A stretch of 64,000 nt of DNA from the sequence record PZ445551.1. One strand, 5' to 3'. This DNA comes from a phage. The position numbers were made by a program, and so were the translations under genes. Positions 19,215-59,864 of the stretch are shown here, in pieces. Below the pieces are notes generated by a model. The model was not told where the DNA came from, made no database searches, and saw only the letters and a list, made by a program, of their open reading frames with translations. Each line of letters begins with the position of its first letter. Position 1 is the first letter of the stretch.

Positions 19215-19538
19215 ATGCAAAAAATAAACACTGGTTCTCGTCCTAAACAGAAGCAAACAAAAGCAAGGGTATCTTATGTTGACAACTCTTGTTATAATTT
19301 CAAAAATGTTAAAGAAGTTATCATTGATGAAAAAGAAGGTTTGATTCACATTTCATCTGAACGTTTGAAAGGTAGTGTTACTCTTCGTGAGAATGTATCT
19401 ATACCTATGAAAGTTGTGGCTACACTCTGTGTTGATAAACCAGATGTTGTTAACTACTATGTGTTCCGTGATAGTTGTATTTCATTACATAATAAGATTT
19501 TTAAATCTTCGCACGTTAAAACAAAACACATTGTATAA
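19215..19538 (+). CDS. hypothetical protein (107 aa)
   Basis: track ORF. Confidence 0.55.
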   Translation: MQKINTGSRPKQKQTKARVSYVDNSCYNFKNVKEVIIDEKEGLIHISSERLKGSVTLRENVSIPMKVVATLCVDKPDVVNYYVFRDSCISLHNKIFKSSHVKTKHIV

Positions 19539-19544
19539 CACATA

Positions 19545-19567
19545 AACCCGCTTCGGCGGGTTTTCTT
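19545..19567 (+). terminator. rho-independent terminator
   Basis: cccgc-ttcg-gcggg hairpin followed by TTTTCTT. Confidence 0.6.
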
Positions 19568-19612
19568 GTATGTGTGTTTTTATTTGTCTTAGCATAAACA
19601 ATAGGAGGTATT

Positions 19613-19834
19613 ATGTCTGTAGTTGTAGAAGGTAGTATTGGCTTCTTAGTAGATAACCCTCACCCTTTCGTGGTTAAGGTTCATATTCAAGAAAAGGTAA
19701 GCAACAATACGTGGTTGTGCTTGTTAGATAGTAAGATACACTCTTACACAGAGGTTTATCTTCATACTTGGCAAATTGGTACGATAACAGCAGAGGATGA
19801 ATTGATAATTGAATTATATGAACGAGATCTATAG
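19613..19834 (+). CDS. hypothetical protein (73 aa)
   Basis: track ORF; RBS taggaggt. Confidence 0.55.
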   Translation: MSVVVEGSIGFLVDNPHPFVVKVHIQEKVSNNTWLCLLDSKIHSYTEVYLHTWQIGTITAEDELIIELYERDL

Positions 19835-19915
19835 ATGACTTTACTAGAGAGTATCGTAGTGTTAATCATCTTTATCATTGTTGTCATAGGATATTTTACA
19901 GAAGACTAAAATAAA

Positions 19916-19948
19916 GCCCCCTAGAAGCGATTCTAGGGGCTTTTGTTT
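19916..19948 (+). terminator. rho-independent terminator at end of plus-strand module
   Basis: gcccctagaa-gcga-ttctaggggc followed by TTTTGTTT. Confidence 0.6.
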
Positions 19949-20010
19949 GCATTAGATAGGGAAACGTATTACTAAAATAAAAAGTGCGTTAGAATGCGTT
20001 ACAGGAGGTT

Positions 20011-20268
20011 TTAGGAATGCATAAAATCTTCTTCAGGGCAGGTTGAGAGATAAGAGATGCACGTTGGGACAACAACAACATTATCTTTAAGGTTTGCAAC
20101 CAAGCCTTTTGTAATTCCAGCCACTGCCCCGTTAATATCTGCTTGACGGATACCAAAACCTTGTTGTGCGGATAGATAACAAAATCCCTCACCTTTCTGT
20201 TGATTATTATTGAAGTAATAAACGTAGTGCATCATAAAATGGTCTTTAACGATTTGTTCTGTGGTCAT
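20011..20268 (-). CDS. hypothetical protein (85 aa)
   Basis: track ORF; RBS aggag upstream on minus strand. Confidence 0.5.
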   Translation of the reverse strand: MTTEQIVKDHFMMHYVYYFNNNQQKGEGFCYLSAQQGFGIRQADINGAVAGITKGLVANLKDNVVVVPTCISYLSTCPEEDFMHS

Positions 20269-20283
20269 AATATTCTCCTATAA

Positions 20284-20306
20284 GAAAAAAGGGGCTTTCG
20301 CCCCTT
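20284..20306 (-). terminator. rho-independent terminator after Sir2-like gene
   Basis: minus strand reads GGGGC-gaaa-GCCCC then TTTTTT; same hairpin sequence recurs at 31572 and 45005. Confidence 0.6.
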
Positions 20307-20313
20307 GGTCAAG

Positions 20314-21126
20314 TTACTTAGTCAAATGATCTTCTATCATTTTTATGAAAGCAGGATTGCTAAAAGCATCTGCTGCCTTTTCTCTATAAACAAAGACTCC
20401 TCTATCTTCGTAAAGAAGAGTTTCTTCGTAATTAATTCCTGGGTTAACAACAATCATTTTTATACCCATAGTAAGTGCAGGGAATAATTCCCAATTAAAA
20501 TTGATAACTTGGTTTGAACATCCTACTACAACAACCAAATCTTGCATGGTCAAAGTATCAAACAAGTGAGCCATATCTGCATACAAAGGTGCAGCCTCAC
20601 CAAAAAATACAACATTAGGCTTCACCCAGTTATAATCATCTATGTTTATACTATTGTAACCAATGTCTACCAGTGTTTTGTAATCTCCAGGGTGCATACG
20701 GTAAACTACTTCAGGAAGATACCCGTGCACGTGAATAACAGAATCCCTGTCCACACCTGCTCGCTCTAGTAGATCATCAACGTTTGTTGTCAAGTTTACT
20801 ACTTGGTTAGGATATTCCTTAAACCACTTTGCTATTTGAATATGTGCAGCATTAGGTTGTACATCTTTAAGCTCAACACGTCTTTTGTTATAAAATTCGT
20901 GTGTTTTGGCATACAAGTCCATACCGTTCTCGTCTACACCACCGACCACTGGAAGATCTGGAGATGTTCTCACACGATAACCTGCTTGGAAAGCTCCAAT
21001 ATCGCAGACCTCTTCTAAATCATATTCTTCCCACAAGGCACGACCACTATCTGTGTCTGTTCGGAATGTTCGAATCCCACTGTCTGCACTTAAACCTGCG
21101 CCACTAACAAAAATTACTCTTCGCAT
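20314..21126 (-). CDS. Sir2-family (sirtuin-like) NAD+-dependent protein, no zinc-ribbon cysteines
   Basis: N-terminal GAGLSADSGIRTFR matches sirtuin GAGxSxxxGIPxFR; VIHVHG catalytic His; 270 aa. Confidence 0.7.
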   Translation of the reverse strand: MRRVIFVSGAGLSADSGIRTFRTDTDSGRALWEEYDLEEVCDIGAFQAGYRVRTSPDLPVVGGVDENGMDLYAKTHEFYNKRRVELKDVQPNAAHIQIAKWFKEYPNQVVNLTTNVDDLLERAGVDRDSVIHVHGYLPEVVYRMHPGDYKTLVDIGYNSINIDDYNWVKPNVVFFGEAAPLYADMAHLFDTLTMQDLVVVVGCSNQVINFNWELFPALTMGIKMIVVNPGINYEETLLYEDRGVFVYREKAADAFSNPAFIKMIEDHLTK

Positions 21127-21683
21127 TCAATATCCTCTTCGTAATCATCATCCCAAGAAGATGCGTCGTAACGCTCTTCCTCTTCGAAATCCCAATTAAT
21201 TTCTACTCCAAAATCTAAAAACAATTTAACAATGTTTTCTGTAGAGTAGTATTTATCATAAGCGTCAGCTAGTTCCCAATACTTGTCACTCAATTTTTTA
21301 TATTTAGGATCATTATAGTCATAATCTACTTTATAACCATAATCATACATCTCTTGTTCAGCTTTAAGCATAGCTTCTGGTGTAAGAAGATTAGGGAACG
21401 GACGATTTCTTTCTTTTAACTTAGAAACAATCCAGTTTGCAACATTTGCCACTTCACCATCTTGATTATCACCTAAACAACTTGCATAATCTCCATCTTC
21501 GTAAGTGCCTAAATCCCCACAGACCACATGTACAATACTTGAATACGATCCACACGTTTCACAATCTGAAAAAGTGTCTACTGTTGTAATATCAATAGAT
21601 AAAACTGGTAAAGCCATAGCTTCTTTCACACAAGCCTCCTCATATAATAACATATCATCAAAACCCATATATCCTCCACACAA
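21114..21683 (-). CDS. acidic hypothetical protein co-transcribed with Sir2-like gene
   Basis: track ORF; 13-nt overlap with Sir2-like start; very acidic C-terminus. Confidence 0.5.
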   Translation of the reverse strand: MCGGYMGFDDMLLYEEACVKEAMALPVLSIDITTVDTFSDCETCGSYSSIVHVVCGDLGTYEDGDYASCLGDNQDGEVANVANWIVSKLKERNRPFPNLLTPEAMLKAEQEMYDYGYKVDYDYNDPKYKKLSDKYWELADAYDKYYSTENIVKLFLDFGVEINWDFEEEERYDASSWDDDYEEDIECEE

Positions 21684-21687
21684 ATAA

Positions 21688-21708
21688 AGCCCCTGATTGG
21701 GGCTTTGG
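21688..21708 (-). terminator. hairpin terminator (agcccc/ggggct)
   Basis: GC hairpin between the 21723 and 21683 genes; moderate T tract. Confidence 0.35.
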
Positions 21709-21722
21709 TTAAGTTTTACGGA

Positions 21723-22331
21723 TTATACCAGACTTTTAAGGTACTTGTCAAGGGCTTCTTGATCACCTTGACAAACATAGCAACGGAAGTCTTGAGCAGA
21801 AGGTTCTTTGTCCTCGTCCCAATCCCAATAGACAGTACCTTTATAACGTGAGCCTGGGAACTCGAAATATGCTGTATGAGTAATATGATGTGGGCCACCC
21901 CAAAACTGTGTAAAAGTAAATTGAGGATACGCTGCTTTAACTGTATTTTCAAACCAAGTTTTACGATCTAATGCTTCGTTTATAAAATAAGCATGGCGTT
22001 CCATTTCATCCCAGTTTTTCCAAACGCATTTTTCATCCAGAGAAAAAACAAAATCTTCACTGTTGAATTCATCTGTATCTTCCAAAATATCATAATCATG
22101 TGCACTAGGTATCCACCATCCAGCTTCTAATAGTGCTTTCACGGGTACAAAACCTTTTTCAGCATATTGATCAAATTCTTTTACTCTACGTACAGTGCAG
22201 TATTCATCTTCACCACCAATGTCCAGTAGAAAAGCACCTTTGCGTCTTGCTGCAAGACCATGTGTATCAAAAACTACAACACTACCTTCACCATCTTCAC
22301 GATCTACTTGATATGCAACTTTTTGAGTCAT
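21723..22331 (-). CDS. hypothetical protein (202 aa)
   Basis: track ORF 21723..22487 trimmed to ATG 22331 so it no longer overlaps the methyltransferase gene. Confidence 0.45.
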   Translation of the reverse strand: MTQKVAYQVDREDGEGSVVVFDTHGLAARRKGAFLLDIGGEDEYCTVRRVKEFDQYAEKGFVPVKALLEAGWWIPSAHDYDILEDTDEFNSEDFVFSLDEKCVWKNWDEMERHAYFINEALDRKTWFENTVKAAYPQFTFTQFWGGPHHITHTAYFEFPGSRYKGTVYWDWDEDKEPSAQDFRCYVCQGDQEALDKYLKSLV

Positions 22332-22455
22332 ATTACCCCCCAATGTACATGGGAAATTAACCAAAAGATAAATTCCCAAAAACACCAACCAAGAAAAGTT
22401 AATGGAATTATAAAAGCTATCAGAGCAGTCTTCCAGCCTTTCCACAATGTTTCCA

Positions 22456-23445
22456 CTATTCCTCCATACATTTAAGAATATGTGCAATGACAGGTATAGT
22501 CCAACCGTTACCTAACATCTTATATGCTTGTGTGTTACTACTCACTTTAAAGTAATCATCTGGAACACCTTGTAAGCGGCAACACTCTTTAACCGTTAAC
22601 TTTCTATAATGTACGCCTTCACTCAATTTTTCAAAGGCATCTAGATATCTTCCAGGTGGAATGTAGGCTAATAGTACGTCTTTAGGCACAGTCGTGAGGC
22701 AACGAGTTTTTTCACTGTCCTGAACTTCCAAACAATGTACCAAACGATCAGTTTTAGATGTACTACGTTTGCCATTTTCATTAATTCTACGCCCATATAT
22801 TGCTGCCGGATAAAAAACCAGTTGTCTGCGACTCTTTTCAAAATACTGTTCTATATTACCACCTTTGGCATAATTTGCATCTATGCAATAAGCCTTATCT
22901 CTGTCTACAATACTATCATCTTCAATTATATCTTGCAACACTTCATTGGTAATCTCCCAGGGTTTTATTTCCCAGTTGCACCAGTATAAACGTTGTCTAT
23001 TCTGTGCCGTGAAATCTGCGGAGTTAATGAATACGGGATCAACACCTAAGTAACTTGTGATCACGTTTTCCCACTCCATTTTCATCTTAACGTTTTCAAG
23101 CATGAACTTAACATTAGGATTAAACTTTTTAATATGTTCAAGAATTTCAACATATTCGAAGAATAGCTTAGATCGTGGATCTTGAAAGTTCAAACCCTTA
23201 CCAGAAGAAGAGAAGCCTTGACACGGACTACCACCTAACAAAAGATCAATTTCTCCCCACGGGATATCCCATTCTCTCCATTTTGTAACATCACCTAACT
23301 GAATAATATCTGGAAAATTTGCTTGGCTTTCAGCTACGGCAAATTTGTCTAATTCTGAAGCGTAATATGTATCTACTTCAATACCTGCACTTTTTAGCGC
23401 AAGCATTCCTCCTGACATACCATCAAAAAGACTTAAAACTTTCAT
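22456..23445 (-). CDS. dcm: DNA (cytosine-5)-methyltransferase
   Basis: motif I LFDGMSGG, motif IV GGSPCQGFS, motif VI ENV; 329 aa. Confidence 0.85.
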   Translation of the reverse strand: MKVLSLFDGMSGGMLALKSAGIEVDTYYASELDKFAVAESQANFPDIIQLGDVTKWREWDIPWGEIDLLLGGSPCQGFSSSGKGLNFQDPRSKLFFEYVEILEHIKKFNPNVKFMLENVKMKMEWENVITSYLGVDPVFINSADFTAQNRQRLYWCNWEIKPWEITNEVLQDIIEDDSIVDRDKAYCIDANYAKGGNIEQYFEKSRRQLVFYPAAIYGRRINENGKRSTSKTDRLVHCLEVQDSEKTRCLTTVPKDVLLAYIPPGRYLDAFEKLSEGVHYRKLTVKECCRLQGVPDDYFKVSSNTQAYKMLGNGWTIPVIAHILKCMEE

Positions 23446-23447
23446 TA

Positions 23448-23858
23448 TTACTTCTTCTCCTTAACACTAGCTGGTAATTCTGCCTTGAGGCAGAAGTTTA
23501 AACGGTAAGCCTCATTCTCATTTAAAAGTACAGATTCACACGATAACCAGAACAAGAGATCCTCAATACCAGGACTGTTAAGCCAACAGTGCAGAAGAGA
23601 ATGTTGTTCTATATCAATGTAATTTAGTAACAAGGCTTGTAAGGCGTAACTAGTTCCTGTCGTTTTTGCTTTTTCAAGGATGATATTGTGTTTACTAACA
23701 ACTTTCTTCCTAAGACCAAACCATTTATTAACAACAACAGTCTCTTCTTGTAGTTGTTTTCTTATTTTCTCACATTCTTTAACTACAATCTGCATCTTAT
23801 CCACTGCTGATTGAAGTTGTTCTTTTGTTGGGTTTACAAAATAATCACTATAATACAT
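23448..23858 (-). CDS. hypothetical protein (136 aa)
   Basis: track ORF. Confidence 0.5.
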   Translation of the reverse strand: MYYSDYFVNPTKEQLQSAVDKMQIVVKECEKIRKQLQEETVVVNKWFGLRKKVVSKHNIILEKAKTTGTSYALQALLLNYIDIEQHSLLHCWLNSPGIEDLLFWLSCESVLLNENEAYRLNFCLKAELPASVKEKK

Positions 23859-23914
23859 GCTAAACTCCTCTTCTGTTTTTCTGTAGTCTATTCGAAAAAA
23901 CTGGTGTTGTCAAC

Positions 23915-23936
23915 AAAAAACCCGCCGAAGCGGGTT
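23915..23936 (-). terminator. bidirectional hairpin terminator
   Basis: cccgc-cgaa-gcggg flanked by A-run and T-run. Confidence 0.55.
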
Positions 23937-23940
23937 TATA

Positions 23941-24198
23941 TTATTCTACAGGAACTTCTTCACCAAGAGAAACTTCTAAACGGAATGCTTTACTTTCAAT
24001 ACATTCACTACCTTTTAGAAAATCAAATTGCACTATAGACTGACTTAATAGGATAGATAGAATCACATCACAATCTTCACTAGGAGCTAGATGTTTGTAT
24101 TCTTCCTTCAAGGTAACATCATAAAAACATAAATCCCCTACTCCTAGTTCATCCCATCCTTCCCACGCATCTACAAAGTTAAACTCTAAACCTTTCAT
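23941..24198 (-). CDS. hypothetical acidic protein (85 aa)
   Basis: track ORF. Confidence 0.5.
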   Translation of the reverse strand: MKGLEFNFVDAWEGWDELGVGDLCFYDVTLKEEYKHLAPSEDCDVILSILLSQSIVQFDFLKGSECIESKAFRLEVSLGEEVPVE

Positions 24199-24719
24199 AC
24201 AACCTCCTCGTAATTGTTATTGTGTTTTACTGTCTCAACATACAATAAAGATTCCATCTGTAATACATTACCAGAAATAATAAACCCATAAGCCATTTCA
24301 GATGTGTCTATATCATATGCCCCGTCTTCCGGTTTAGCAAAGTGTAAAACTATTTCATCTGGGTTTTCTTCATCCCATAGTTTAGAAATTTTCCGAACCA
24401 GAATGTTAGCTAAAATAGTTGACATTCGGGATAAAGCTGTATCCTCATATCTTTTAAAACCTAGCCAATAGAGGTTAAGAATTTCTACTTCTTCTTGTGT
24501 TAAGTTTTTGTCTAAAGTAATCAGATCTGTAGAGCACGGCGTTTTTGTTGAACCTACGGTTACAAAACCTGGAGTGTTATGAAAAACAATCTTAACTTTA
24601 TCACGTATAAAGTTTAAACCTTGTGCCTCAACTATATATTGTATTGTAGGTACAATATCGTTTGTTACATCAATAAAACTATCTTTAATGACGCTTATAT
24701 TATTTCTGGACAAGACCAT
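24195..24719 (-). CDS. hypothetical protein (174 aa)
   Basis: track ORF. Confidence 0.5.
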   Translation of the reverse strand: MVLSRNNISVIKDSFIDVTNDIVPTIQYIVEAQGLNFIRDKVKIVFHNTPGFVTVGSTKTPCSTDLITLDKNLTQEEVEILNLYWLGFKRYEDTALSRMSTILANILVRKISKLWDEENPDEIVLHFAKPEDGAYDIDTSEMAYGFIISGNVLQMESLLYVETVKHNNNYEEVV

Positions 24720-25278
24720 TCTCCTCTAAAATAGGCTTAATAAACTCGAAAATTTGTTTTTTACTTTTACCTCGAATATTAAAACAAGGAACATTAAACT
24801 TTTTAGCCAACATCCAAGCTGTTCTTGTACCACCTAAAGGATCTCCATTTTTATCTGTATTTGCACAAGCTAAAAGAAAACAAGATGGTTTTGGATTCTC
24901 AAGATCTCTTCCAAGAACTTGGTGAATATTTCTTTGATGTAATTTTTTAGAACCTTGAGATAATCTGTCCCAAGCTGGATGCAATTCTTTTGCATATTGC
25001 AAGGTTAGAGCATAGTTTACACTATCTGGTCTGTCAAGAACAATAACCTCTCCCTCTATTTCATTACCTTTAAACGAGAGCCAAGGGATGTATATTTCTT
25101 TCTTTGTATTGTTCCCACTATCATATACCCCGCATTCAAATGCGGAATCTGCACCTGCTGCTTTACCAGATCGCAAAATGAACCATGTAGATAACCATTT
25201 TGCAACAGATACCATAGTATCCCATTCTTCGTCTGTAATATCTCTGCTACCAACACCTGTGTAGAATAAATCGCTCAT
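24700..25278 (-). CDS. Rossmann-fold SLOG/DprA-like protein (192 aa)
   Basis: track ORF trimmed to MSDLF after RBS aaggag; YTGVGSR...RSGKAAGADSAFECG resembles the DprA/LOG/SLOG core. Confidence 0.4.
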   Translation of the reverse strand: MSDLFYTGVGSRDITDEEWDTMVSVAKWLSTWFILRSGKAAGADSAFECGVYDSGNNTKKEIYIPWLSFKGNEIEGEVIVLDRPDSVNYALTLQYAKELHPAWDRLSQGSKKLHQRNIHQVLGRDLENPKPSCFLLACANTDKNGDPLGGTRTAWMLAKKFNVPCFNIRGKSKKQIFEFIKPILEENGLVQK

Positions 25279-25288
25279 GGTTTTCTCC

Positions 25289-25609
25289 TTAACAAGTAAT
25301 ATTGGGAGTAACAATTGGATTAACAATTGGAGTAATAGGGTACGTAAACCAAGGGCTTCCAATTTCCCAAGGATTATAAGGTCTACGAGGATCAAATGGA
25401 GGAGTTACTTCAGGCTTTTTCCAAATCTCCGCTAGTTGTTTCTTCCATTTATCCCTTGCTGTCTCATTATCTTCATCCAACTGTTCATCATTATCTTTTA
25501 TTTCTGGTTTTGGAAATAAAAGCTCTTTGACTAACTCAACATCTTCCGTCTCAATAGTAGTTTCTTTCGTAAGTTCTCCTACTGTTTCTTTAATTGTGAT
25601 TTTATACAT
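25289..25609 (-). CDS. hypothetical protein (106 aa), Pro/Trp-rich C-terminus
   Basis: track ORF; RBS gaggagg; TAATG overlap. Confidence 0.5.
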   Translation of the reverse strand: MYKITIKETVGELTKETTIETEDVELVKELLFPKPEIKDNDEQLDEDNETARDKWKKQLAEIWKKPEVTPPFDPRRPYNPWEIGSPWFTYPITPIVNPIVTPNITC

Positions 25610-26355
25610 TAGTCCTCCTCTAAAGTAGAATAAAATTGTAACGTATTTGAATCATCAAAATATGCAAAGGTTAAATTACCATTGAAGCAAGATCCTGTGT
25701 CCATATATACCCTATTACTGCTAATCACAGGTTTAGGAACATAAGAATGCCCGTGAAATACATAATCTACTCCTGAAACCCTAGGGAGAAGAATTCCTTC
25801 AAGTGCGCAATCTATCATATCACGATCCCACATTAAAGATTCTGTGAATCGAGAAACTTGCTCTTTATTCATATTCAAACAAAATGGCAAAACTTCTGTC
25901 ACTGGTAAATGTTTCAAAACTGAAGGATACCCACCGTGAATAAAGCCTAGTTTCATATTACGATAATTGACAACAAGTACAACAGGTAAATCTTCTAGCA
26001 TCAAAGCAAGAGCAGTTGCACCCTCTTCTCCACACTCGTCTAGAACTGTATGGCCTCCGTTCTGAAACCAACATTCGTAATATCGTCTATCACCTTCTAG
26101 CAACCCTTTAATCATCATATCTTCATGATTTCCACGAATACCATAACGATTTAGCTTTCTGGTGAATTCAACAACACAACGAAAATTCTGCTTGCCGCGA
26201 TCTGTAAGATCTCCTAAAGATACAACAACATCTTGATCTCGGATACCTAAAGTATTAACACCTTTCTGGTACAAATCAAAGCAACCATGTAAATCACCAA
26301 TAATAAACAGGTCTTGATCATCTTTTACACTAATTTCTTGATATACTAGCATCAA
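25609..26355 (-). CDS. Ser/Thr protein phosphatase (PPP/lambda-phosphatase-like metallophosphoesterase)
   Basis: GDLHGC, GDLTDRG, GNHE motifs. Confidence 0.8.
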   Translation of the reverse strand: MMLVYQEISVKDDQDLFIIGDLHGCFDLYQKGVNTLGIRDQDVVVSLGDLTDRGKQNFRCVVEFTRKLNRYGIRGNHEDMMIKGLLEGDRRYYECWFQNGGHTVLDECGEEGATALALMLEDLPVVLVVNYRNMKLGFIHGGYPSVLKHLPVTEVLPFCLNMNKEQVSRFTESLMWDRDMIDCALEGILLPRVSGVDYVFHGHSYVPKPVISSNRVYMDTGSCFNGNLTFAYFDDSNTLQFYSTLEED

Positions 26356-26678
26356 CTCTCCTCAAAATCCATAAGTATAAAGATATTAACTTTACCTTCT
26401 ATATTATGTTCTACAACAAGATCTGCAAATTCTTTGTAGGCTTTTTCTTCTATTTGTTCAATGTGAGACGCTACATCTTTGTATATAGCGTCACCATCTA
26501 CTTTAACAAGGAGGAATAGAGATCTTACTTCAATCTCTTTATTTTTACGGGGTAGAAAATCGACGGCTTCTTGTATACGCCAGCCGAGATACCCTGGAGT
26601 CCTTTGAATATCCTCCAAATGACTTTCTAAGATTTCCCTTCCTTTGTCTATTAAAGCCTGTTCTGTCGTTATTTTCAT
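26352..26678 (-). CDS. hypothetical protein (108 aa)
   Basis: track ORF. Confidence 0.5.
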   Translation of the reverse strand: MKITTEQALIDKGREILESHLEDIQRTPGYLGWRIQEAVDFLPRKNKEIEVRSLFLLVKVDGDAIYKDVASHIEQIEEKAYKEFADLVVEHNIEGKVNIFILMDFEES

Positions 26679-26688
26679 CCCCTTCTCC

Positions 26689-27261
26689 TTAATGTGTTAA
26701 TGAAACTGCGTAACTAAACACAGGTTCAGATATTACATCGGCTACAGTAATAAAAACGTCTTCGTCTTGAGTTGTTTCTACACGACATACAGTTACACCA
26801 TTCACCACGAATTCAACGCAATGTGGAATATCTTCACAAACGAAGGTAGTGTAAGTAACACCCAAAGCATCATACAAAGATTTAACAGTGTTTGCAAGTG
26901 CCGCAGTTTCTTCTTTTTCTGAGACAATGAATGCTGTAACAACAAGATTGTTTGCATAGTTTAGACTGTCCTCTATAGCCAATGATTTACAAGGTAGTAA
27001 TGCAAAATATTTACCTGGTTTAATCAGACCTGCTTCCCATTGATTCAAAATTGCTTGGGATGGTTTAGTAATATAAAACAGATTTTCACTTGGGTTATCA
27101 ATATTACTTCTGGCGATACAACGTGAAGGATTATTAATATCAAACACATGATCAAAATCTACACAAACTGGTAAACTGAAAGGTGTGAATTTTTTACCTA
27201 ATAATCCTACTGCTGACAATATGTTTGCTGTGCTTATCTTCCCGTTAAAAGCTAAACGCAT
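26689..27261 (-). CDS. hypothetical protein (190 aa)
   Basis: track ORF. Confidence 0.5.
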   Translation of the reverse strand: MRLAFNGKISTANILSAVGLLGKKFTPFSLPVCVDFDHVFDINNPSRCIARSNIDNPSENLFYITKPSQAILNQWEAGLIKPGKYFALLPCKSLAIEDSLNYANNLVVTAFIVSEKEETAALANTVKSLYDALGVTYTTFVCEDIPHCVEFVVNGVTVCRVETTQDEDVFITVADVISEPVFSYAVSLTH

Positions 27262-27272
27262 ATTTAACTCCT

Positions 27273-27476
27273 TTAACTAGCAACCGTAACTTCCGAACTT
27301 TCTTCTTTCGTACTGTCTACGATATGCCTGGTGGCAATATACGAGACTTGCCAGTTACCATCTGGTGTAGTCTCAATAAGTACCCTATCTACTTCGAGAA
27401 AATGCAAAAATTCAACCATCGCTCGCTTCGATAGGAATTGTTTTTTAACAGTCTCCTCAAAAGATTGAACTGCCAT
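27273..27476 (-). CDS. hypothetical protein (67 aa)
   Basis: track ORF. Confidence 0.45.
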   Translation of the reverse strand: MAVQSFEETVKKQFLSKRAMVEFLHFLEVDRVLIETTPDGNWQVSYIATRHIVDSTKEESSEVTVAS

Positions 27477-27485
27477 GTTTCCTCC

Positions 27486-28148
27486 TTATTTAATATTCAA
27501 TTTTGCACAAAGACGTTGTACCGCTTTGGCATCGAACAAACTCCCACGAATAGTTCTCTTTCCTGATTCATTCAGATGTTTTGCAATCGTCATATATGGC
27601 GTTTTACAAGCTCTGTATGCAACTAAAGAATCTTTTAAAGAAAGCGCAAACTCTTTTGAGCGTTTTGCTTCTTCCGTTTTCGTATAATCTGTTCTTTTGT
27701 ATTTAGGGTTTGCTGCACCAAGAAGCGTTCCCTTCGCTTTTGCTACTTTAAGGCTCTTCTTAACACGATCAGATATTGCACGAGCCTCTTCTTCTGCCAG
27801 AACTGCTAAAATATTTATTATCATATTTTCAGCGGAGGGCATAGTTGCTATTCGTACATTAATCATCTCTAACAAGGTTGCAACAGAAGCTGTGTTACGT
27901 CCAAGACGGTCAACCTTAGCAACAACAAGTGTAGCACCTGTTTCTTTGCAAAGATTAACAGCTTTTACAAGCTCTCTACGTTGCTTCCAATCGCCTTTAC
28001 CCGAATAAAACTCTGCAAAGCTACCTACAATAGTATAATTTTCTTGTGAATCCAGGAAGCGTTGGATATCTGCTTCCTGTGATTCTATACCATACTGGTT
28101 GCCTTGTTGTTTCTTCTTAGAAAGTCGATGATACAGTACAAACTTCAT
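27486..28148 (-). CDS. serine recombinase (resolvase/invertase family)
   Basis: RLSKKKQ catalytic-Ser region, VVAKVDRLGRNTASVATLLE, AVLAEEEARAISDRVKKSLKVAKAKG, C-terminal HTH. Confidence 0.8.
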   Translation of the reverse strand: MKFVLYHRLSKKKQQGNQYGIESQEADIQRFLDSQENYTIVGSFAEFYSGKGDWKQRRELVKAVNLCKETGATLVVAKVDRLGRNTASVATLLEMINVRIATMPSAENMIINILAVLAEEEARAISDRVKKSLKVAKAKGTLLGAANPKYKRTDYTKTEEAKRSKEFALSLKDSLVAYRACKTPYMTIAKHLNESGKRTIRGSLFDAKAVQRLCAKLNIK

Positions 28149-28205
28149 AATACCCTCCTGTTCTGTTACAGGAAGTATGCACTACCTTAACGTTAAAGTC
28201 AACAG

Positions 28206-28421
28206 TTAAGTAGTGGTAATATCATCTTCTTGAATATCAGGATCAACTTCTGCAAAGATAGCTTCTACAGGAATTTCTTCACCTGCTATTCTAGAAAGAA
28301 GCACTGAACCAATAGCTTTTGCGTGTTCTTCGGATTCCGCATAAACATTAGTCCCTGTGTCTTTTTTCTTAGTTTCGTTAAAATATACCAGATAGTAATT
28401 GTATGCCATTATTCTTCCCAA
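28206..28421 (-). CDS. hypothetical protein (71 aa)
   Basis: track ORF. Confidence 0.45.
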   Translation of the reverse strand: MGRIMAYNYYLVYFNETKKKDTGTNVYAESEEHAKAIGSVLLSRIAGEEIPVEAIFAEVDPDIQEDDITTT

Positions 28422-28660
28422 TCGTTGTTACGAGCATTTTCAAGAACCTTGACAACTTCTGCATACTCTACAGCTAAACCAGCACACACTTCAGCTTGTT
28501 TTGCAATTGCTTGTTTAAAGAACATAGCGATTGCAACACTCTGTGTTGTGTGAATGTTATCTGCTTTAGTTGATACGTGAAGATCAAAATCTTCTTCATC
28601 AAAGGTGAGTTCCATAGTAACAATAAATTTCTCGGTCATAAAAATGCTCCTCTTAAACAA
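28409..28660 (-). CDS. hypothetical protein (83 aa)
   Basis: track ORF. Confidence 0.45.
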   Translation of the reverse strand: MFKRSIFMTEKFIVTMELTFDEEDFDLHVSTKADNIHTTQSVAIAMFFKQAIAKQAEVCAGLAVEYAEVVKVLENARNNDWEE

Positions 28661-29162
28661 AATAGAAAGGTTGAGTTAAACCCAGCCTGTTTTTTGGGTC
28701 GTAGACGTACCAAGCATATGCTGTCTTATCAGTACCACCTGCAACAAAAGATGGTCGTTCAGAAAGAACAATCAAATTTGTTGGTGGATTCTGTTTATGG
28801 AATTCCCTTCGTTTAATAGACTCTAGGAAACCAAGACGCAACAAGTATATGCAAACGTCTGCTTCTTTTAAGCTCTTTTGCAAGAACTCAAGTGCAAGTT
28901 TGAATGGGGGATTTGTGATTATAATATCCGGCTTAGTATGCCATTCGTGGTTAAAATAATCTTTCCCTTCTTCTAACTCACAATATTCTGATCCTTCTGG
29001 AAAATGTTGATAAATTGCAGCAGCAGCGCCTTTACACGGTTCTGCAAAAATAAAACCTTCTTCTTTAAGGTTATTAAAATCTATTACACTAAATAATGCA
29101 TTTATACATTTTTGTGGAGTAGGATAGTAATCAGTTGGTGGACGATCATACTTATTTGCCAC
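28653..29162 (-). CDS. putative N6-adenine methyltransferase (phage Dam-like, NPPF motif)
   Basis: DYYPTP and IIITNPPF motifs; 169 aa. Confidence 0.55.
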   Translation of the reverse strand: MANKYDRPPTDYYPTPQKCINALFSVIDFNNLKEEGFIFAEPCKGAAAAIYQHFPEGSEYCELEEGKDYFNHEWHTKPDIIITNPPFKLALEFLQKSLKEADVCIYLLRLGFLESIKRREFHKQNPPTNLIVLSERPSFVAGGTDKTAYAWYVYDPKNRLGLTQPFYFV

Positions 29163-29580
29163 TACTTAAAATCTCCTCTTTTGTGATTTCAGGGTCTTCT
29201 TCAAAAACCATAATATCTCTTAAGAACGTTAATTCTTCCATAGATACTGGTATTGTATCTTCTTCTGTTTTTCGTTTACATAAATCGTCAAGAAAGTTTT
29301 TAAAGTTTTCTGACAAATCGTAAAATTTCAACAGTTGATAATCACAGGAGGAGATCCTATCTAGTTCTAACATTCTTTCTAAGATATTTTCTGTGTTGCC
29401 ATACAGCACACGAACTTCTCCGAAAGGGTTGACTGAGTATTGTGAAGTTCTGAACCATCCCTTTTTAGATACAGTGTAACGCTGTTCTGCTAAACTTTCA
29501 ATAAAATTTTTAGCTCTTTTACAGTTTTGTTCTAAAGAGTAGTAGGCTTTTTCTACAAAGGTTACAGGTACTGGTAACAT
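29152..29580 (-). CDS. hypothetical protein (142 aa)
   Basis: track ORF. Confidence 0.5.
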   Translation of the reverse strand: MLPVPVTFVEKAYYSLEQNCKRAKNFIESLAEQRYTVSKKGWFRTSQYSVNPFGEVRVLYGNTENILERMLELDRISSCDYQLLKFYDLSENFKNFLDDLCKRKTEEDTIPVSMEELTFLRDIMVFEEDPEITKEEILSSGK

Positions 29581-29620
29581 ATCTCCTCCTAATAACCCCC
29601 TTGCGGGGGTTTATACTAGA

Positions 29621-30274
29621 TTAATTATCAGAGGACACTTTATCAAGTTTTTCAGAGACTGTCAATACTTTTTCTTGTGATTCTTTCATTTCTGCTAAAA
29701 TACTTTCAGCTTCATCACTATCAGGATCACCAGTCAACAGCATACTAATTAGTTGCTCCTTGCTGAAGTTCAGAATATCTTCCGCTGTTAGCTCCAGTTG
29801 TTCTTCGATCTCTTCAATAAAAGTTTCACCGCCGGAAAAAGCATCTCGTAGTTTTGCAACTTCCATCGCTTCTTCTGGAGTTGCCCCTGCATCTAAAGCT
29901 GCTAAAGCAAAATCTGCCCCACTACCAACAGCATAATAATCTTCAGTTAAAGGATATGCTCGCGTGGGATTATTACCCTCGTGCATATAAATTTTACCGT
30001 CTGGGTGAACAACCAATGCCACAAATTCTTCATCTTCTTTATCAGGATCTGACTGGATCACCAAACCTGGGATTGTCTCTTGTGCTGCTTGGCATTGTAA
30101 GTTTTGTTCGAACCAAGAAAAGAAAGTCAGGATAGAAGACAGACGTCCTGCACCACCAACAAGGTAGTCCCCAATTTTACGCACTTTCTTGAAATTTAAA
30201 GTGTCTACACGACTACCTACTGTTACTTTACCGTCAGACAGAATTTTGTTACGTGTTGCAATAATTGTTGTCAT
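29621..30274 (-). CDS. HslV-like Ntn-hydrolase (proteasome beta-type) protease subunit
   Basis: MTTIIATRN (Thr2), KVRKIGD, GGAG, AVGSGADFALAAL resemble HslV; acidic C-terminal extension. Confidence 0.6.
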   Translation of the reverse strand: MTTIIATRNKILSDGKVTVGSRVDTLNFKKVRKIGDYLVGGAGRLSSILTFFSWFEQNLQCQAAQETIPGLVIQSDPDKEDEEFVALVVHPDGKIYMHEGNNPTRAYPLTEDYYAVGSGADFALAALDAGATPEEAMEVAKLRDAFSGGETFIEEIEEQLELTAEDILNFSKEQLISMLLTGDPDSDEAESILAEMKESQEKVLTVSEKLDKVSSDN

Positions 30275-30765
30275 TGTACTTCCTCCTGTAGTGTTTTAAG
30301 GACTGCTTTACCACCGCTTACATATTTACGGAGGTAATCAATAGCTCTTAGTGTTTCTTTATCCACAAGAATTTTATTAGTTCTTGTTAGTGGATGATTT
30401 AGTAAATCACTGCAATTTCTTACTAACATAGATTTCTTGTGAAAGATACTGCTAAGAAAAAGAAGTTTAGAATCTTCTTCATCAATCAGGAGTAATTCTG
30501 AATTAGACCCAGCTATATTTATTATACACTCAAACAAGCCTTCTTGACTATCAGATAATTCCTGGTAATATTTAGTTAGCCAATCCTCGCCTTTTAACCA
30601 ACTAAAAAACATCTGAACTTTTTGCAAAGTTGTCATGTTCTCTAAACGAAGAGATATTTCTTTTTCAATCTTGTCAATATAAATCTGTCTAAACTCATTC
30701 GGCTTAACTAAGCCAGCTTGATAGCATTCATCAATACCATTGCGATCAATCTCAATTAGCGTCAT
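30271..30765 (-). CDS. hypothetical protein (164 aa)
   Basis: track ORF. Confidence 0.5.
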   Translation of the reverse strand: MTLIEIDRNGIDECYQAGLVKPNEFRQIYIDKIEKEISLRLENMTTLQKVQMFFSWLKGEDWLTKYYQELSDSQEGLFECIINIAGSNSELLLIDEEDSKLLFLSSIFHKKSMLVRNCSDLLNHPLTRTNKILVDKETLRAIDYLRKYVSGGKAVLKTLQEEVQ

Positions 30766-30801
30766 TTAACCTCCATAACAGGCATCCTTGCCTTGTAATT
30801 A

Positions 30802-31554
30802 TTAATATACTTCCGTGATGAACTGAGACAAACGGGAACGTTGGTTATCAGCAGTTGTCATTTCAACATAACCAATAAAATCCACAATAGCTTCCCTTTC
30901 TCCTTCTTCATTAATAGGAACAACACGATCTAACAAATCACCTAACCCGTTAGCTCTTCGTTTAATTGCATATGTTTGATTAACATCACCCATAATGACA
31001 ATACGTGTATTAAGACCTGCTCGCTCAAGGAGAAGTTTTACTGTATTTGGTGACATAAGTTGAACTTCATCAATAAGAATAATGCTGTTATCCCACGTAG
31101 CACCTAGTGCATAGTTTGGAATATTAAGTTCAATTTTGCCACTTGCAATATCGTTTTCCAATTTATTTGCAGTCATAAACTGTTGGAAAATTCTTTTAGT
31201 TGATTCGTAGTGTGCTGCTAGTTTATCAGTCTTATCTCCAGATAAGAAACCAATTTGATCATCACCTACTTCTGTCGGGTTTTTAAGGAAAATCAACTTT
31301 CTGAAATCACCAGCTTTAAGCATTTGCAATGCTTTCCACAGTGCTGTTGTCGTTTTTCCTGTTCCTGCTGGGGCATTAACAATGGTTAAATCATTCCAAA
31401 CCATGCTTCTTACAATAGCTTCTTGATTCCCAACAGGGGTAAATTCATCAAGACGGTAATCATCATTTCCTACTGCTTTAGCCGCATAACGACTGGCACG
31501 TTTGTCATCATTGGCTGCTGATTGACGACGAGCCTTTGCGGTTTTATTTCCCAT
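30802..31554 (-). CDS. phoH: PhoH-like ATPase
   Basis: Walker A NAPAGTGKTT and PhoH-like downstream region. Confidence 0.8.
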   Translation of the reverse strand: MGNKTAKARRQSAANDDKRASRYAAKAVGNDDYRLDEFTPVGNQEAIVRSMVWNDLTIVNAPAGTGKTTTALWKALQMLKAGDFRKLIFLKNPTEVGDDQIGFLSGDKTDKLAAHYESTKRIFQQFMTANKLENDIASGKIELNIPNYALGATWDNSIILIDEVQLMSPNTVKLLLERAGLNTRIVIMGDVNQTYAIKRRANGLGDLLDRVVPINEEGEREAIVDFIGYVEMTTADNQRSRLSQFITEVY

Positions 31555-31571
31555 GTTTGCACTCCTTATAA

Positions 31572-31590
31572 AAGGGGCTTTCGCCCCTTT
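31572..31590 (-). terminator. rho-independent terminator after lysozyme gene
   Basis: GGGGC-gaaa-GCCCC then TTTT on minus strand. Confidence 0.6.
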
Positions 31591-31592
31591 GT

Positions 31593-32093
31593 TTAGTTAT
31601 AAGCGTCTAATGTTCCAGTTTTAAGTACCTGAATTACACGCTCTGCGCGATTAGGCGTTTGGCGATACCATTTACTTTTACGTAAATTTATAGAGGCTTG
31701 AGTATAATATGAATTACTCACTAAAGTCAAGCTATTTTTGAAAGATTCTGCACCTTTCAATCCCATTTGAAATACCATATTGATAATAGCCATTTTACGA
31801 TTAGGACTTACTTTATCGTAAATAGGAGATAATATGGTACTTGAATGGATTTGTTGTATCGCTTTCTTTACGTCACTTTCAAAGATTCTTCTAGCTTCCG
31901 CTTCAGTAATAACTCCATTGGTTTTTCTACCTACTAAGTTATCAAGAATGCGTATAGCTTCTGCTTTATCTTTGAGTTTTGTCAGAAGGTGTCCAATACC
32001 AACTGTCCAATACCCTTCGGTATCAGGATATACAGTTAGCTTTAGTCCTTCATCAAAACGTAACATATCAAACACATCAACTACTTTAGCCAT
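31593..32093 (-). CDS. T4-type lysozyme (endolysin, GH24)
   Basis: MLRFDEGLKLTVYPDTEGYWTVGIGHLLTK matches the T4 e catalytic E/D/T region. Confidence 0.9.
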   Translation of the reverse strand: MAKVVDVFDMLRFDEGLKLTVYPDTEGYWTVGIGHLLTKLKDKAEAIRILDNLVGRKTNGVITEAEARRIFESDVKKAIQQIHSSTILSPIYDKVSPNRKMAIINMVFQMGLKGAESFKNSLTLVSNSYYTQASINLRKSKWYRQTPNRAERVIQVLKTGTLDAYN

Positions 32094-32105
32094 GTTTTCC
32101 TTATA

Positions 32106-32249
32106 TTAGTCGCCCTCCCCATGATCTAGCTCTTGAAACAGTAGGTGTTCAGGAGACATTTCACGTTTAGGCTTCGTCTTTTTAGTTTGGGACTTAAGCT
32201 CTGTTGCCAAAGCACGAGAAAAGATTTTACGTTTCTGTTTACCTTTCAT
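32106..32249 (-). CDS. small basic protein (47 aa), not in track
   Basis: ATG 32249 after RBS ggag; Lys-rich. Confidence 0.3.
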   Translation of the reverse strand: MKGKQKRKIFSRALATELKSQTKKTKPKREMSPEHLLFQELDHGEGD

Positions 32250-32253
32250 ATTG

Positions 32254-32520
32254 TTACTCCGCAATCTGAGCCATGAATTCACGTAGTTCAGAAAAACCTC
32301 CTACGTGGGTTAGCTGTTCACCATCTTCCACAAAAATCTGAGGAAATGTGCGTGGTAGAACACCTGTTTTCTCTAAAACCAGATTCTGAATCTGATCTAA
32401 AGAATAGTCTTCATCTAAGGTAAGGTATTTAAAATCCTGTTCACGCTGTTCTAGTAGAATCTTAGCGTTAGTGCAGAAAGGACAATTTGGTTTACCGTAG
32501 ATAATAAAATTCATTTTCAC
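32254..32520 (-). CDS. glutaredoxin/thioredoxin-like (NrdC/NrdH-type)
   Basis: CPFC active-site motif near N-terminus; 88 aa. Confidence 0.75.
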   Translation of the reverse strand: MKMNFIIYGKPNCPFCTNAKILLEQREQDFKYLTLDEDYSLDQIQNLVLEKTGVLPRTFPQIFVEDGEQLTHVGGFSELREFMAQIAE

Positions 32521-33347
32521 TCCTTGTTTAAAAGTATAGTTAAAGTTCTTACAATACCGCTATCAACACTTCGCGGATTTAAAGTAGGATCTGTTTTTAA
32601 ATAAGATGTTGCTGGTCTGACTGCTTTTGAATTATAGGTTGAAGCAGATACAGGATTAACTGTAACAGATAAATCTATAACAAGAAATATCTTTCGTGCA
32701 AAATCATACCAAGAAATATAATCTGCACCTGCATAGTGTACAATTTTACTATTTACACCATCTTTTACAAGTTTAAAAATTGTTTCTGCAAGATCAGGTG
32801 CATAAGTAGGACATGATAAATGATCACATACTACATTAAATTCTTTTTGACCACCGTTGTAGCGTTCCAACATAGTTTTCAAAAAGTTATGTCCAAATTC
32901 ACTATAAACAGAAGCTGTTCGGATAATAAGTGCTGTAGGACAAACTGTTTGTACTAAAGTTTCACCTAATTGTTTACTATAACCGTAGGTGTTCAAGGGG
33001 TTTGTTTTACTATCTTCTGTACCAGCAACATGCCCATCAAAAACATAGTCTGTTGAAATATGTACAAACTGTATCAGTAAATCATTACATGCTTTGGCAA
33101 TGTTTGTTGCACCGTATGCATTAACATTTATACAGGTGTTAACATCTTCTTCAGCTTTATCTACTGCCGTGTAAGCCGCACAATTCACAACAACATCAGG
33201 CACATGCTGTACAAGACTATTCATAACATCTTTAAAGTTGGTAATGTCTACATCACTTGCTTCAATCAAAATAACATCTTCGGGCGCAACTTTTGCCAAA
33301 GACTGTCCTAATTGACCTTTTGAACCAAAGACTAAAAATTTTGTCAA
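32517..33347 (-). CDS. rmlD: dTDP-4-dehydrorhamnose reductase
   Basis: N-terminal GxxGQLG Rossmann motif; position after rmlC. Confidence 0.75.
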   Translation of the reverse strand: MTKFLVFGSKGQLGQSLAKVAPEDVILIEASDVDITNFKDVMNSLVQHVPDVVVNCAAYTAVDKAEEDVNTCINVNAYGATNIAKACNDLLIQFVHISTDYVFDGHVAGTEDSKTNPLNTYGYSKQLGETLVQTVCPTALIIRTASVYSEFGHNFLKTMLERYNGGQKEFNVVCDHLSCPTYAPDLAETIFKLVKDGVNSKIVHYAGADYISWYDFARKIFLVIDLSVTVNPVSASTYNSKAVRPATSYLKTDPTLNPRSVDSGIVRTLTILLNKE

Positions 33348-33898
33348 AATATGATCTCCTTTAGTGTTTTGGCTTCCTGATCTTTTTGTGACAAGATAGG
33401 TTTAAAATTAATATCATTAAAGATTAAATCAAAACCCCAATCTATATTGATATCTGGATCATTCCACGCAAGACTACACTCTGAAGTCGGATCGTAATAT
33501 TCTGTACATTTGTATTCAAAATCAGCAATATCACTAATCACAACAAAGCCATGAGCGAAACCAGGAGGAATCCAAAATTGTGTTTTATTCTTTTCAGATA
33601 AGAGAACACCTACCCATTCTCCAAATGTTGGACTACCAACCCTAATATCTACAGCAACATCATAAACTTCACCACGAACACAGCGTACTAACTTCCCTTG
33701 TGGGTTTTTCTTTTGAAAATGAAGCCCACGTAGAACTCCTCGGATAGAACGTGAATGGTTATCTTGGACAAAGTTTTGTTTACCTATGTATTGATCATAT
33801 AAAGCCTGATTAAAACTTTCTAAGAAAAAGCCACGTTCATCTCCATAAACGTCAGGTTGAATGATCAACAAGTCTTCGATTTTTGTTGCTTGAATCAT
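33344..33898 (-). CDS. rmlC: dTDP-4-dehydrorhamnose 3,5-epimerase
   Basis: cupin-type RGLHFQ region; 184 aa. Confidence 0.8.
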   Translation of the reverse strand: MIQATKIEDLLIIQPDVYGDERGFFLESFNQALYDQYIGKQNFVQDNHSRSIRGVLRGLHFQKKNPQGKLVRCVRGEVYDVAVDIRVGSPTFGEWVGVLLSEKNKTQFWIPPGFAHGFVVISDIADFEYKCTEYYDPTSECSLAWNDPDINIDWGFDLIFNDINFKPILSQKDQEAKTLKEIIF

Positions 33899-33910
33899 TT
33901 AATTCCCCTT

Positions 33911-34780
33911 TTATTTTAATTTAAGTAAATACTTACCGTAGTCTGTTTTACTTAAAACCTCTCCAGAACTTTTTACAGAGTCTAAAGTAATCCATTCATT
34001 TTTAAAAGCAATCTCTTCCAGGCATGCAACCTTCATACCTTGTTGCTTCTCTATTGCATGAACAAATTGAGATGCTTCCATAAGACTTTCATGTGTTCCT
34101 GTATCCAGCCAAGTGAAACCTCTTCCTAGCTTACAGACACGTAAAGCCTTTTCTTTCCAGTACATCTCATTTATATCTGTGATCTCTAACTCCCCTCTAG
34201 CAGAAGGCTTAACGCTTTTAGCTTTCTGTATAACAGAATTATCGTAAAAGTACAAGCCTGTAATTGCATAGTTGCTTTTTGGTGCTTTTGGTTTTTCTTC
34301 AATACTTACCACTGTACCTTCAGAATCAAACTCAACAACACCAAATCTTTCAGGATCATTTACGTGATACCCAAAAATATTAGCTCCACCATTCTTTTCA
34401 ATATGTTCTTTAGCAGAATCTAAAATGCTACCAAAACTCTGACCAAAGAATAAATTATCACCTAGCACAAGTGCTACAGAATCTTCACCAATAAAGTTCT
34501 CACCAATAATAAACGCTTCTGCTAAACCTTTTGGGCTATCCTGTACTGCATACTGTAGGGAAATACCAAAAGAAGAACCGTCACCTAGAAGATTTACAAA
34601 ATTAATTTGATCTTCTGGTGTTGTAATTATTAGTATTTCCCTAATTCCAGAAAGCATTAGGACAGAGAGTGGATAATAAATCATAGGTTTATCGTAAATT
34701 GGTAATAGTTGTTTACTAACCCCTTTAGTAACTGGGTAAAGTCTTGTTCCACTACCACCTGCTAAGATAATACCTTTCAT
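33911..34780 (-). CDS. rmlA: glucose-1-phosphate thymidylyltransferase
   Basis: [19 protein letters not shown]-terminal signature. Confidence 0.85.
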
Positions 34781-34788
34781 ACTCCTCC

Positions 34789-59723: not shown

Positions 59724-59809
59724 GCAAGTGTGGTGGAATTGGTGATACACATTGTGCTTAAAACGCAACGCTTAAATGCTTGAGGGTTCGAATCCCTCCA
59801 CTTGCACCA
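59724..59809 (+). tRNA. tRNA-Leu(TAA), type II
   Basis: acceptor GCAAGTG/CACTTGC, anticodon loop CTTAAAA, long variable arm, T-arm GAGGG-TTCGAAT-CCCTC. Confidence 0.75.
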
Positions 59810-59824
59810 ACACCTAAAAATATC

Positions 59825-59853: not shown

Positions 59854-59864
59854 TACTATGAAAA

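Follow-up and report, generated by a model that had tools for sequence, protein, structure and literature searches.

Few accessory genes of phages are commoner than orphan methyltransferases, and at face value the finding of further examples matters little. Orphan C5-cytosine DNA methyltransferases of phages, for which DNMT3A/B, M.HhaI, and M.HaeIII serve as references, are monomer-sized, match the hidden Markov model (HMM) of their family over its full length, and have no partner endonuclease. The gamma-class N6-adenine DNA methyltransferases (M.TaqI, MmeI, HsdM; families N6_Mtase and Eco57I) are proteins of 380-1000 aa. METTL5 and PH1948 (COG2263) are N6-methyladenine (m6A) enzymes acting on rRNA. 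Hia5 and Hin1523 are phage- or prophage-borne orphans with no classical specific target-recognition domain (TRD); they are Dam-like DPPY enzymes of 281 aa that have a divergent TRD region and are protective (PMC3299994). Here we describe two methyltransferase genes from a 64,000-nucleotide stretch of phage DNA (record PZ445551.1; the whole stretch is called the window below). The first encodes a C5-cytosine methyltransferase of 329 aa, and the second encodes a protein of 169 aa with an NPPF motif, called the small enzyme below. Their positions are given in Table 1.

Our explanation, to which we assign a probability of about 0.6 as a whole, is that this orphan pair would carry out C5 methylation and m6A methylation at a restricted set of sites, as a narrow supplement to the avoidance of restriction sites. 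Both genes are real and intact orphans of a virulent phi92-like myovirus, and they would belong to an early or middle block transcribed, apparently, from host-type promoters. The 329-aa enzyme, dependent on S-adenosylmethionine (SAM) and built on a DNMT3-like catalytic core, would most likely modify replicating phage DNA at one specific short sequence, and progeny genomes methylated in this way would resist Type II enzymes that cut that sequence. The small enzyme is a minimal (D/N)PP(F/Y) amino-methyltransferase. Its most likely activity is methylation of adenine N6 in DNA, for which we put the odds somewhat better than even, at a restricted set of sites and not everywhere. Against restriction, the phage relies mainly on having purged such sites from its genome. 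It is plausible that the methylation protects a narrow set of sites, within the limits set by the experimental record on close relatives.

The 329-aa protein is certainly a DNA C5-cytosine methyltransferase by its sequence and fold. It matches PF00145 with E=2e-43 and 149.5 bits (cut-off 22), residues 1-327 being aligned with positions 1-322 of the 324 in the profile, and TIGR00675 with 141.7 bits (cut-off 100.65). Its closest known counterparts are the orphan phage C5 DNA methyltransferases of PHROG 116. All five motif landmarks that were checked (I, IV, VI, VIII, and X) are present: FDGMSGG of motif I (7), PCQ with the nucleophilic Cys (74-76), ENV (117-119), QNRQR (148-152), and GNGW (312-315). 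The residues P74, C75, Q76, E117, N118, V119, Q148, R150, R152, G312, and N313 are invariant across 48 homologs. An AlphaFold model made from the 48 homologs (mean predicted local distance difference test, pLDDT, 79.4) has the two-domain fold of C5 methyltransferases with a well-defined catalytic domain. The loop 178-209 is modeled poorly (pLDDT <50) yet holds the invariant residues K184, C187, A190, and K194; presumably it is the DNA-reading element.

The closest solved relatives by sequence are the catalytic domains of DNMT3A and DNMT3B (E ~4e-23), M.HaeIII, and M.HhaI. The protein differs from these references in its overall sequence (25-30% identity) and in its target-recognition region (~160-270), which has no detectable similarity to any enzyme with a known specificity. 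Matches to Dnmt2 and Dcm are much weaker. The protein is no closer to Dnmt2 than to DNA enzymes either by sequence or by fold, and its identification as a Dnmt2 tRNA (cytosine-38) methyltransferase was rejected. It is not a Dcm orthologue either: the model of the Dcm subfamily (CCWGG, NF007772) gives 30.1 bits against a cut-off of 710 and covers residues 280-328 only, i.e., the alignment with Dcm/M.EcoRII is confined to the C-terminal motifs IX-X. The gene is intact at ≥95% identity in 55 phage records, all of them phi92-like. The next homologs are found in marine siphophages of Pseudoalteromonas and Vibrio (~52% identity) and in the jumbo phages 121Q, PBECO4, and RaK2 (~50%). Among close relatives the C5 gene is restricted to the genus Justusliebigvirus, and it is absent from the sister genus Phapecoctavirus, for which phage DE16 stands here.

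The initial annotation, which had pointed to the C5 gene by its PCQ and ENV motifs and to the small gene by its NPPF motif, was right about both genes, and also in seeing no partner endonuclease nearby: none appears in the Pfam, PHROGs, and PADLOC scans or in the annotation of the window. Among the 20 open reading frames (ORFs) scanned at 20011-30765, no match to a nuclease or restriction enzyme was found with Pfam and PHROGs, and no match to a defense model was found for the eight of them that were also scanned with PADLOC. The only endonucleases annotated in the whole window are two HNH homing-type enzymes (43842-44417 and 37968-38624); these and the annotated replication/recombination exonucleases are all located more than 10 kb away. 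Since no cognate endonuclease of a Type II restriction-modification (RM) system is adjacent, both methyltransferase genes are orphans.

The small enzyme is a real and probably active amino-methyltransferase of an uncharacterized TRD-less family carried by phages. Its gene starts with GTG, GAGGAG being located 10 nt upstream, and homologs have the same start residue. The protein contains EPCKG at 41-45 and NPPF at 84-87, and its motifs follow in the order X, I, IV, as in gamma-class enzymes. The catalytic motifs are invariant or nearly so in 42 homologs: motif X is Y13-x-T15-P16, motif I is E41-P42-C43-x-G45, and motif IV is I81-x-T83-N84-P85-P86-F87. Further invariant positions include the acidic or aromatic residues E62, D68, and Y69 and the C-terminal R118, R136-P137-x-F139, D145, and D155; a four-cysteine zinc-ribbon insert is present in a subset of family members. 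PHROG 799, labeled “DNA methyltransferase”, matches the protein with E=8e-57. The structural model is confident (pLDDT 90.6, predicted template-modeling score 0.87) and consists essentially of a bare Rossmann methyltransferase core.

The fold of this core is equally similar to m6A enzymes acting on RNA and to gamma-class m6A enzymes acting on DNA. The match scores are 13.3 for PH1948, 13.1 for METTL5, and 12.0 for ErmC' among the RNA enzymes, and 13.0 for MmeI, 12.8 for M.TaqI, 12.2 for M.BseCI, 12.1 for HsdM, and 11.9 for CamA among the DNA enzymes. The small enzyme thus shares the catalytic-domain fold of the gamma class but is much shorter, has neither a TRD nor a specificity subunit, and stays below every curated HMM threshold. 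Sub-threshold Pfam matches, which center on motif IV, were obtained among the 42 family members for EcoRI_methylase (38), MTS (20), Dam PF05869 (13), N6_Mtase (12), and Eco57I (9). MTS is a small RNA/protein methyltransferase domain. Taken as sequence signals, these weak matches lean to the DNA adenine methyltransferase families. Membership in PF05869 (phage Dam) itself was rejected: the best E-value among the 42 members, 0.0059, does not reach the cut-off, and hhalign gives a probability of 8% over 29 columns around motif IV only. Named viral structural neighbors are predicted DNA adenine methyltransferases, plus one labeled “COG2263 RNA methylase”.

Several points weigh against our explanation, and two more, the restriction of a close relative and the comparison with a sister phage, are given further below. 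The two best structural matches of the small enzyme, PH1948 and METTL5, are RNA methyltransferases. The protein has no match in Pfam (E<0.01), NCBIfam, or the PDB sequences and passes no curated HMM threshold for any DNA methyltransferase family. It lacks a TRD, the normal sequence reader of DNA methyltransferases, and no recognizable extra domain was found in 10 longer or extended family members scanned from the top 150 representatives. Motifs of the NPPF type are shared by N2-guanine RNA, N4-cytosine DNA, and glutamine methyltransferases. In the literature we found no enzyme assay of either protein, no methylome of phi92-like or rV5-like phages, and no enzymatic test of any small phage methyltransferase with NPPF.

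The family of the small enzyme is large. An exhaustive profile search returned 13,789 cluster representatives at E<=1e-3 and 7,044 at E<=1e-10, nearly all of 130-260 aa; nearly all of the homologs stand alone, at 156-203 aa, and carry no Pfam domain. The family is present in 557 phage records, with identity to the small enzyme of ≥95% in phi92-like phages, ~82-88% in Phapecoctavirus, and ~47-52% in Vequintavirus and its relatives. More distant members occur in phages of Vibrio, Caulobacter, Listeria, and Staphylococcus, among others. One metagenomic phage has the gene amid those for three Dam-type DNA methyltransferases, DnaB, and ThyX, and a temperate phage has it beside a DnaQ-like exonuclease, not far from an integrase. 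When 185,579 species genomes were scanned, 125 bacterial loci from many phyla were obtained, and 135 ORFs from 25 of these loci were surveyed as neighbors. The commonest neighbor family is C5 DNA methylase (five loci), followed by S24 repressor and integrase (four each) and by RecT, RusA, and PDDEXK DUF3799 (three each); DnaB_2, Rha, ANT, YqaJ, and one N6_N4 methyltransferase are rarer. No Type II endonuclease family is among the neighbor families listed for the 25 loci. The family is thus a phage-borne orphan that travels with genes of DNA replication, recombination, and DNA methylation. It is mainly because of this association with neighbor genes that we prefer a DNA substrate for the small enzyme.

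The context bears on the suggestion, made already in the initial annotation, that the small enzyme is an RNA methyltransferase. It would then be either a METTL5/PH1948-like m6A enzyme or an RsmC/RsmD-like enzyme forming N2-methylguanine, and would act on rRNA or tRNA of the host or the phage and not on DNA. Both kinds of enzyme are similarly small and have no TRD, the weak MTS matches in 20 of the 42 members and the COG2263 label agree with them, and the phage carries 15 tRNAs and an RNA ligase, an investment in functions of RNA. We nevertheless regard this identity as rather unlikely, since DNA m6A enzymes reach equal fold scores, the weak sequence matches favor DNA adenine methyltransferase families, and the neighbors are genes of DNA methylation, replication, and recombination. 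METTL5 and PH1948 in particular are alike in fold; by sequence, METTL5 against the family profile gives E ~0.5, which is not significant, no conserved TRMT112-like partner was found, and its genomic context is phage DNA metabolism. Many of the phages and prophages concerned have no tRNA genes, and the presence of the family in temperate phages of this kind argues against action on phage tRNAs. A bolder reading is that the family as a whole, which at 50% identity numbers at least 7,000 clusters, would act on RNA, e.g., on a tRNA anticodon loop or an rRNA site, and not on DNA; this we consider improbable. If true, the family could shield the translation machinery from RNA-targeting bacterial defenses or reprogram it, and a class of phage counter-defense would be hidden behind the label “DNA methyltransferase”.

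In either case the small enzyme stands for a very large family of phages and prophages for which curated libraries have no model and which has apparently never been assayed. Knowing what it methylates, and where, would reveal the function of thousands of genes, and if the substrate is DNA, as we favor, the enzyme would define the smallest working DNA methyltransferase architecture.

The window derives from a phi92-like phage of E. coli. Over window bases 20000-32000 it is 100% identical to the Escherichia phage VivaForever (PP925843.1, 146,096 bp, reverse strand; record position = 94105 - p, where p is the window position). Many phi92-like phages, including phi92 itself and EmilieFrey (Bas61 of the BASEL collection), are 98.4-99.1% identical to the same region; Bas61 has 98.9% identity over these 12 kb and shares both methyltransferase genes. 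These relatives belong to the genus Justusliebigvirus of the subfamily Stephanstirmvirinae, and both genes are intact across ~55 genomes of the genus. The sequence and both methyltransferase annotations are already public in dozens of GenBank records, so the finding as such is an ordinary one. The VivaForever record labels both genes “DNA methyltransferase”; the EmilieFrey record, which was curated by hand, has “Dcm-like C5 cytosine methyltransferase” for the first and “putative N6 adenine methyltransferase” for the second. The label “Dcm-like” is generic and says nothing on specificity.

Two further genes with methyltransferase labels are located outside the window. A third genuine methyltransferase at PP925843.1 140148-140879 is a beta-class enzyme of 243 aa (DPPY...FSGSATT) whose gene adjoins that of DNA polymerase; it is labeled “Dam-like” in EmilieFrey and is absent in DE16. 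A fourth coding sequence annotated “DNA methyltransferase”, PP925843.1 25778-26257, is located between those for the portal and the scaffold. In relatives with better curation its counterparts are a “putative prohead protease” (EmilieFrey) and an “XkdF-like serine protease” (DE16). The methyltransferase label is probably a mis-annotation, which likely explains reports of four methyltransferases in Justusliebigvirus.

The restriction sensitivity of this group can be judged from Bas61, for which raw plaque counts have been published (experiment 1 was used here). The counts are 2.7e7 on the vector control, 2.7e7 with EcoCFT_I, 8e6 with EcoCFT_II, and 3e6 with EcoKI, the last being a tenfold loss; no plaques were detected on EcoRI, EcoRV, and EcoP1 hosts. 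The authors of the plating study concluded that phages of this group “lack any effective protection” against RM. The complete restriction by EcoRI, EcoRV, and EcoP1 is one of the two further points against our explanation announced above, and it implies that any methylation-based protection must be narrow. All six tested RM systems are blocked by adenine methylation at their own sites. It follows that the adenine methyltransferases of the phage leave GAATTC, GATATC, and AGACC unmodified. Non-specific adenine methylation of the Hia5 type is excluded in practice, as Bas61 carries the same gene and is blocked; the Hia5 type also differs from the small enzyme in class and size. The data are silent on the C5 enzyme because the six systems are adenine-dependent. 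Wild-type K-12 MG1655, which carries McrBC, McrA, and Mrr, was the isolation host of several phages that have this same C5 gene. If C5 methylation is present in the phage DNA, we infer that the modified sequence must be tolerated by these three systems.

Avoidance of restriction sites is extreme. Sites were counted on both strands of a reconstructed genome of 144,104 bp and compared with maximal-order Markov expectations. Of the 64 six-base palindromes, 22 are absent genome-wide (12 are absent from the window alone). The observed and expected numbers are 0 and 45.3 for AAGCTT, 0 and 21.2 for AGTACT, 0 and 19.5 for CAGCTG, 0 and 19.2 for GGTACC, 0 and 18.9 for GGATCC, and 1 and 30.6 for CTGCAG. 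Other depleted sites are GGWCC (0/45.7), GGYRCC (2/47.5), GRGCYC (0/18.8), GGTCTC (0/14.6), and GGCC (40/126.8). By contrast, CCWGG (180/197), GCGC (149/136), GCNGC (264/241), GATC (640/632), GAATTC (34/35.6), and GATATC (55/52.5) are not avoided; GAATTC and GATATC are the sites of EcoRI and EcoRV, the two Type II enzymes on whose hosts Bas61 formed no plaques. Judged from the genome sequence, the main anti-restriction device that is visible is site avoidance and not methylation. Such avoidance is generally known from virulent phages (PMC6286503). The initial annotation had interpreted the two genes as phage self-methylation for anti-restriction. This reading is supported in part: the orphan genes on which it rested are there, but protection by them would at best be narrow, with Bas61 restricted and site avoidance dominant.

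DE16 (OP595145.1) provides a comparison, as it has the small methyltransferase only and neither the C5 nor the beta-class gene. Inferring the C5 target from un-avoided sites was tried and had to be given up: CCWGG, GCGC, and GCNGC are equally un-avoided in DE16, so no C5 target can be inferred from them, and this is the second of the points announced above. The CCWGG result also separates the enzyme from Dcm/M.EcoRII, whose site is tolerated equally by the sister phage with no C5 gene. Avoidance itself is partly lineage-specific. The observed and expected numbers in this phage and in DE16 are 0/45 vs 108/117 for AAGCTT, 0/46 vs 69/78 for GGWCC, 2/47 vs 38/49 for GGYRCC, and 0/19 vs 15/11 for GGTACC; AGTACT is likewise purged in this phage and normal in DE16. 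The four-base word GTAC is more depleted in DE16 (0.36) than in this phage (0.76).

The tolerance of GATC suggests another purpose: the enzymes might methylate phage DNA for ends other than restriction, such as GATC marking against MutH, timing of replication or packaging, or epigenetic control. GATC is un-avoided here and also in DE16 with its small methyltransferase only, whereas it is counter-selected in enterobacterial phages with no Dam of their own (Deschavanne and Radman 1991, as cited in PMC8541194), and the high RM sensitivity of Bas61 would also agree with such a role. However, host Dam alone could explain the tolerance, nothing links either enzyme to GATC, and the alignment with a PF05869 phage Dam covers motif IV only. 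We therefore take a purpose outside restriction to be unlikely.

A different fate of the C5 mark has also to be considered. C5 methylation could be the first step of a hypermodification, followed by oxidation and then by glycosylation through deoxythymidine diphosphate (dTDP)-sugar genes and glycosyltransferases. The phage does encode dTDP-rhamnose pathway genes (~32517-35778, minus strand, and also record positions 129644-132820, outside the window) and, elsewhere in the genome, four glycosyltransferases, and other authors have speculated on sugar modification of DNA in this phage group. However, no TET/JBP-type dioxygenase is annotated in the 144,104 genome bases examined, the C5 gene has no sugar genes next to it, and in the sister genus (DE16) the sugar genes occur with no C5 gene. 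The DNA of Bas61 is cut efficiently in vivo by EcoRI, EcoRV, and EcoP1. Motif X retains its invariant Asn, and the pair G312-N313 would fit an ordinary SAM methyl donor. Hypermodification is thus very improbable, and plain C5 methylation at one short site is the reading we retain.

This phage group has purged 22 of 64 six-base palindromes and keeps three methyltransferases, yet EcoRI and EcoRV block it fully. It offers a natural test case for the division of labor between methylation and site avoidance in the evasion of restriction. Insight into this division would be useful for choosing or engineering therapeutic phages with a broad host range.

Both methyltransferase genes are located inside a long leftward gene block, and the GC skew is negative from ~20 kb to 56 kb. 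The features around them are collected in Table 1.

Table 1. Methyltransferase genes and adjacent features, in window positions
Feature	Position	Strand	Remarks
C5 gene: orphan DNA (cytosine-5) methyltransferase	22456..23445	-	329 aa; ATG start; AGGAG-type ribosome-binding site upstream
Small-enzyme gene: orphan minimal amino-methyltransferase, no TRD	28653..29162	-	169 aa; NPPF motif; probable DNA N6-adenine type
ORF of 136 aa	23448..23858	-	2 bases upstream of C5 gene; PHROG 16551 (unknown function)
ORF of 142 aa	29152..29580	-	overlaps start of small-enzyme gene by 11 nt; PHROG 15078 (unknown function)
Terminator-like hairpin	23937-23918	-	upstream of 136-aa ORF and C5 gene; consensus scan
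Sigma-70-like promoter, TTGACA-17-TAGACT	23913-23885	-	right after hairpin 23937-23918; upstream of 136-aa ORF and C5 gene; 10/12
Terminator-like hairpin	21706-21686	-	downstream of unit holding C5 gene
Sigma-70-like promoter, TTGACA-17-TAAAGT with extended TG	29665-29637	-	upstream of 142-aa ORF and small-enzyme gene; 10/12; intergenic

The 136-aa and 142-aa ORFs have no match in Pfam, NCBIfam, or PADLOC. The former is apparently co-transcribed with the C5 gene. An ORF of ~140-160 aa abuts the small-enzyme gene upstream in the window and in two distant contexts, and could have encoded a conserved partner or a specificity subunit; this was rejected, as the three abutting ORFs are not homologous (BLASTP), so that the 142-aa ORF is unrelated to the ORFs upstream of distant family members.

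Terminator-like hairpins are enriched at 19500-32500 (17 vs 6.0 +/- 2.5 in shuffles), and promoter-like sites overall are not (47 vs 41.7). As promoter-like sites are unenriched, the promoter at 23913-23885 is called because of its score and its intergenic position. As a set of consensus matches, the layout of promoters and terminators would fit early or middle transcription by the host polymerase. A perfect 12/12 sigma-70 consensus promoter with extended TG is located at 21722-21751 (minus strand), just upstream of the hairpin at 21706-21686 and of the gene starting at ~21668; this order, a promoter and then a hairpin, is unusual.

Between the two methyltransferase genes, at 27486-28148 (minus strand), there is a serine recombinase/DNA invertase gene (PF00239 Resolvase, E=8e-22; PHROG 125 “DNA invertase”); the phage that carries it is regarded as virulent. 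PHROGs also point to “histidyl-tRNA synthetase”-like fragments at 26689-27261 and an HslV-like peptidase at 29621-30274, and Pfam and PHROGs to a Sir2-family gene at 20314-21126. In the record annotation, a ribose-phosphate pyrophosphokinase gene (56171-57064, plus strand) adjoins a nicotinamide phosphoribosyltransferase gene (57136-58884, plus strand). The pair resembles phage pathways that reconstitute nicotinamide adenine dinucleotide (NAD+) and counter NAD-depleting defenses. The 15 tRNA genes are clustered at 59724-62201, and one of them is typed “tRNA-OTHER” in the record.

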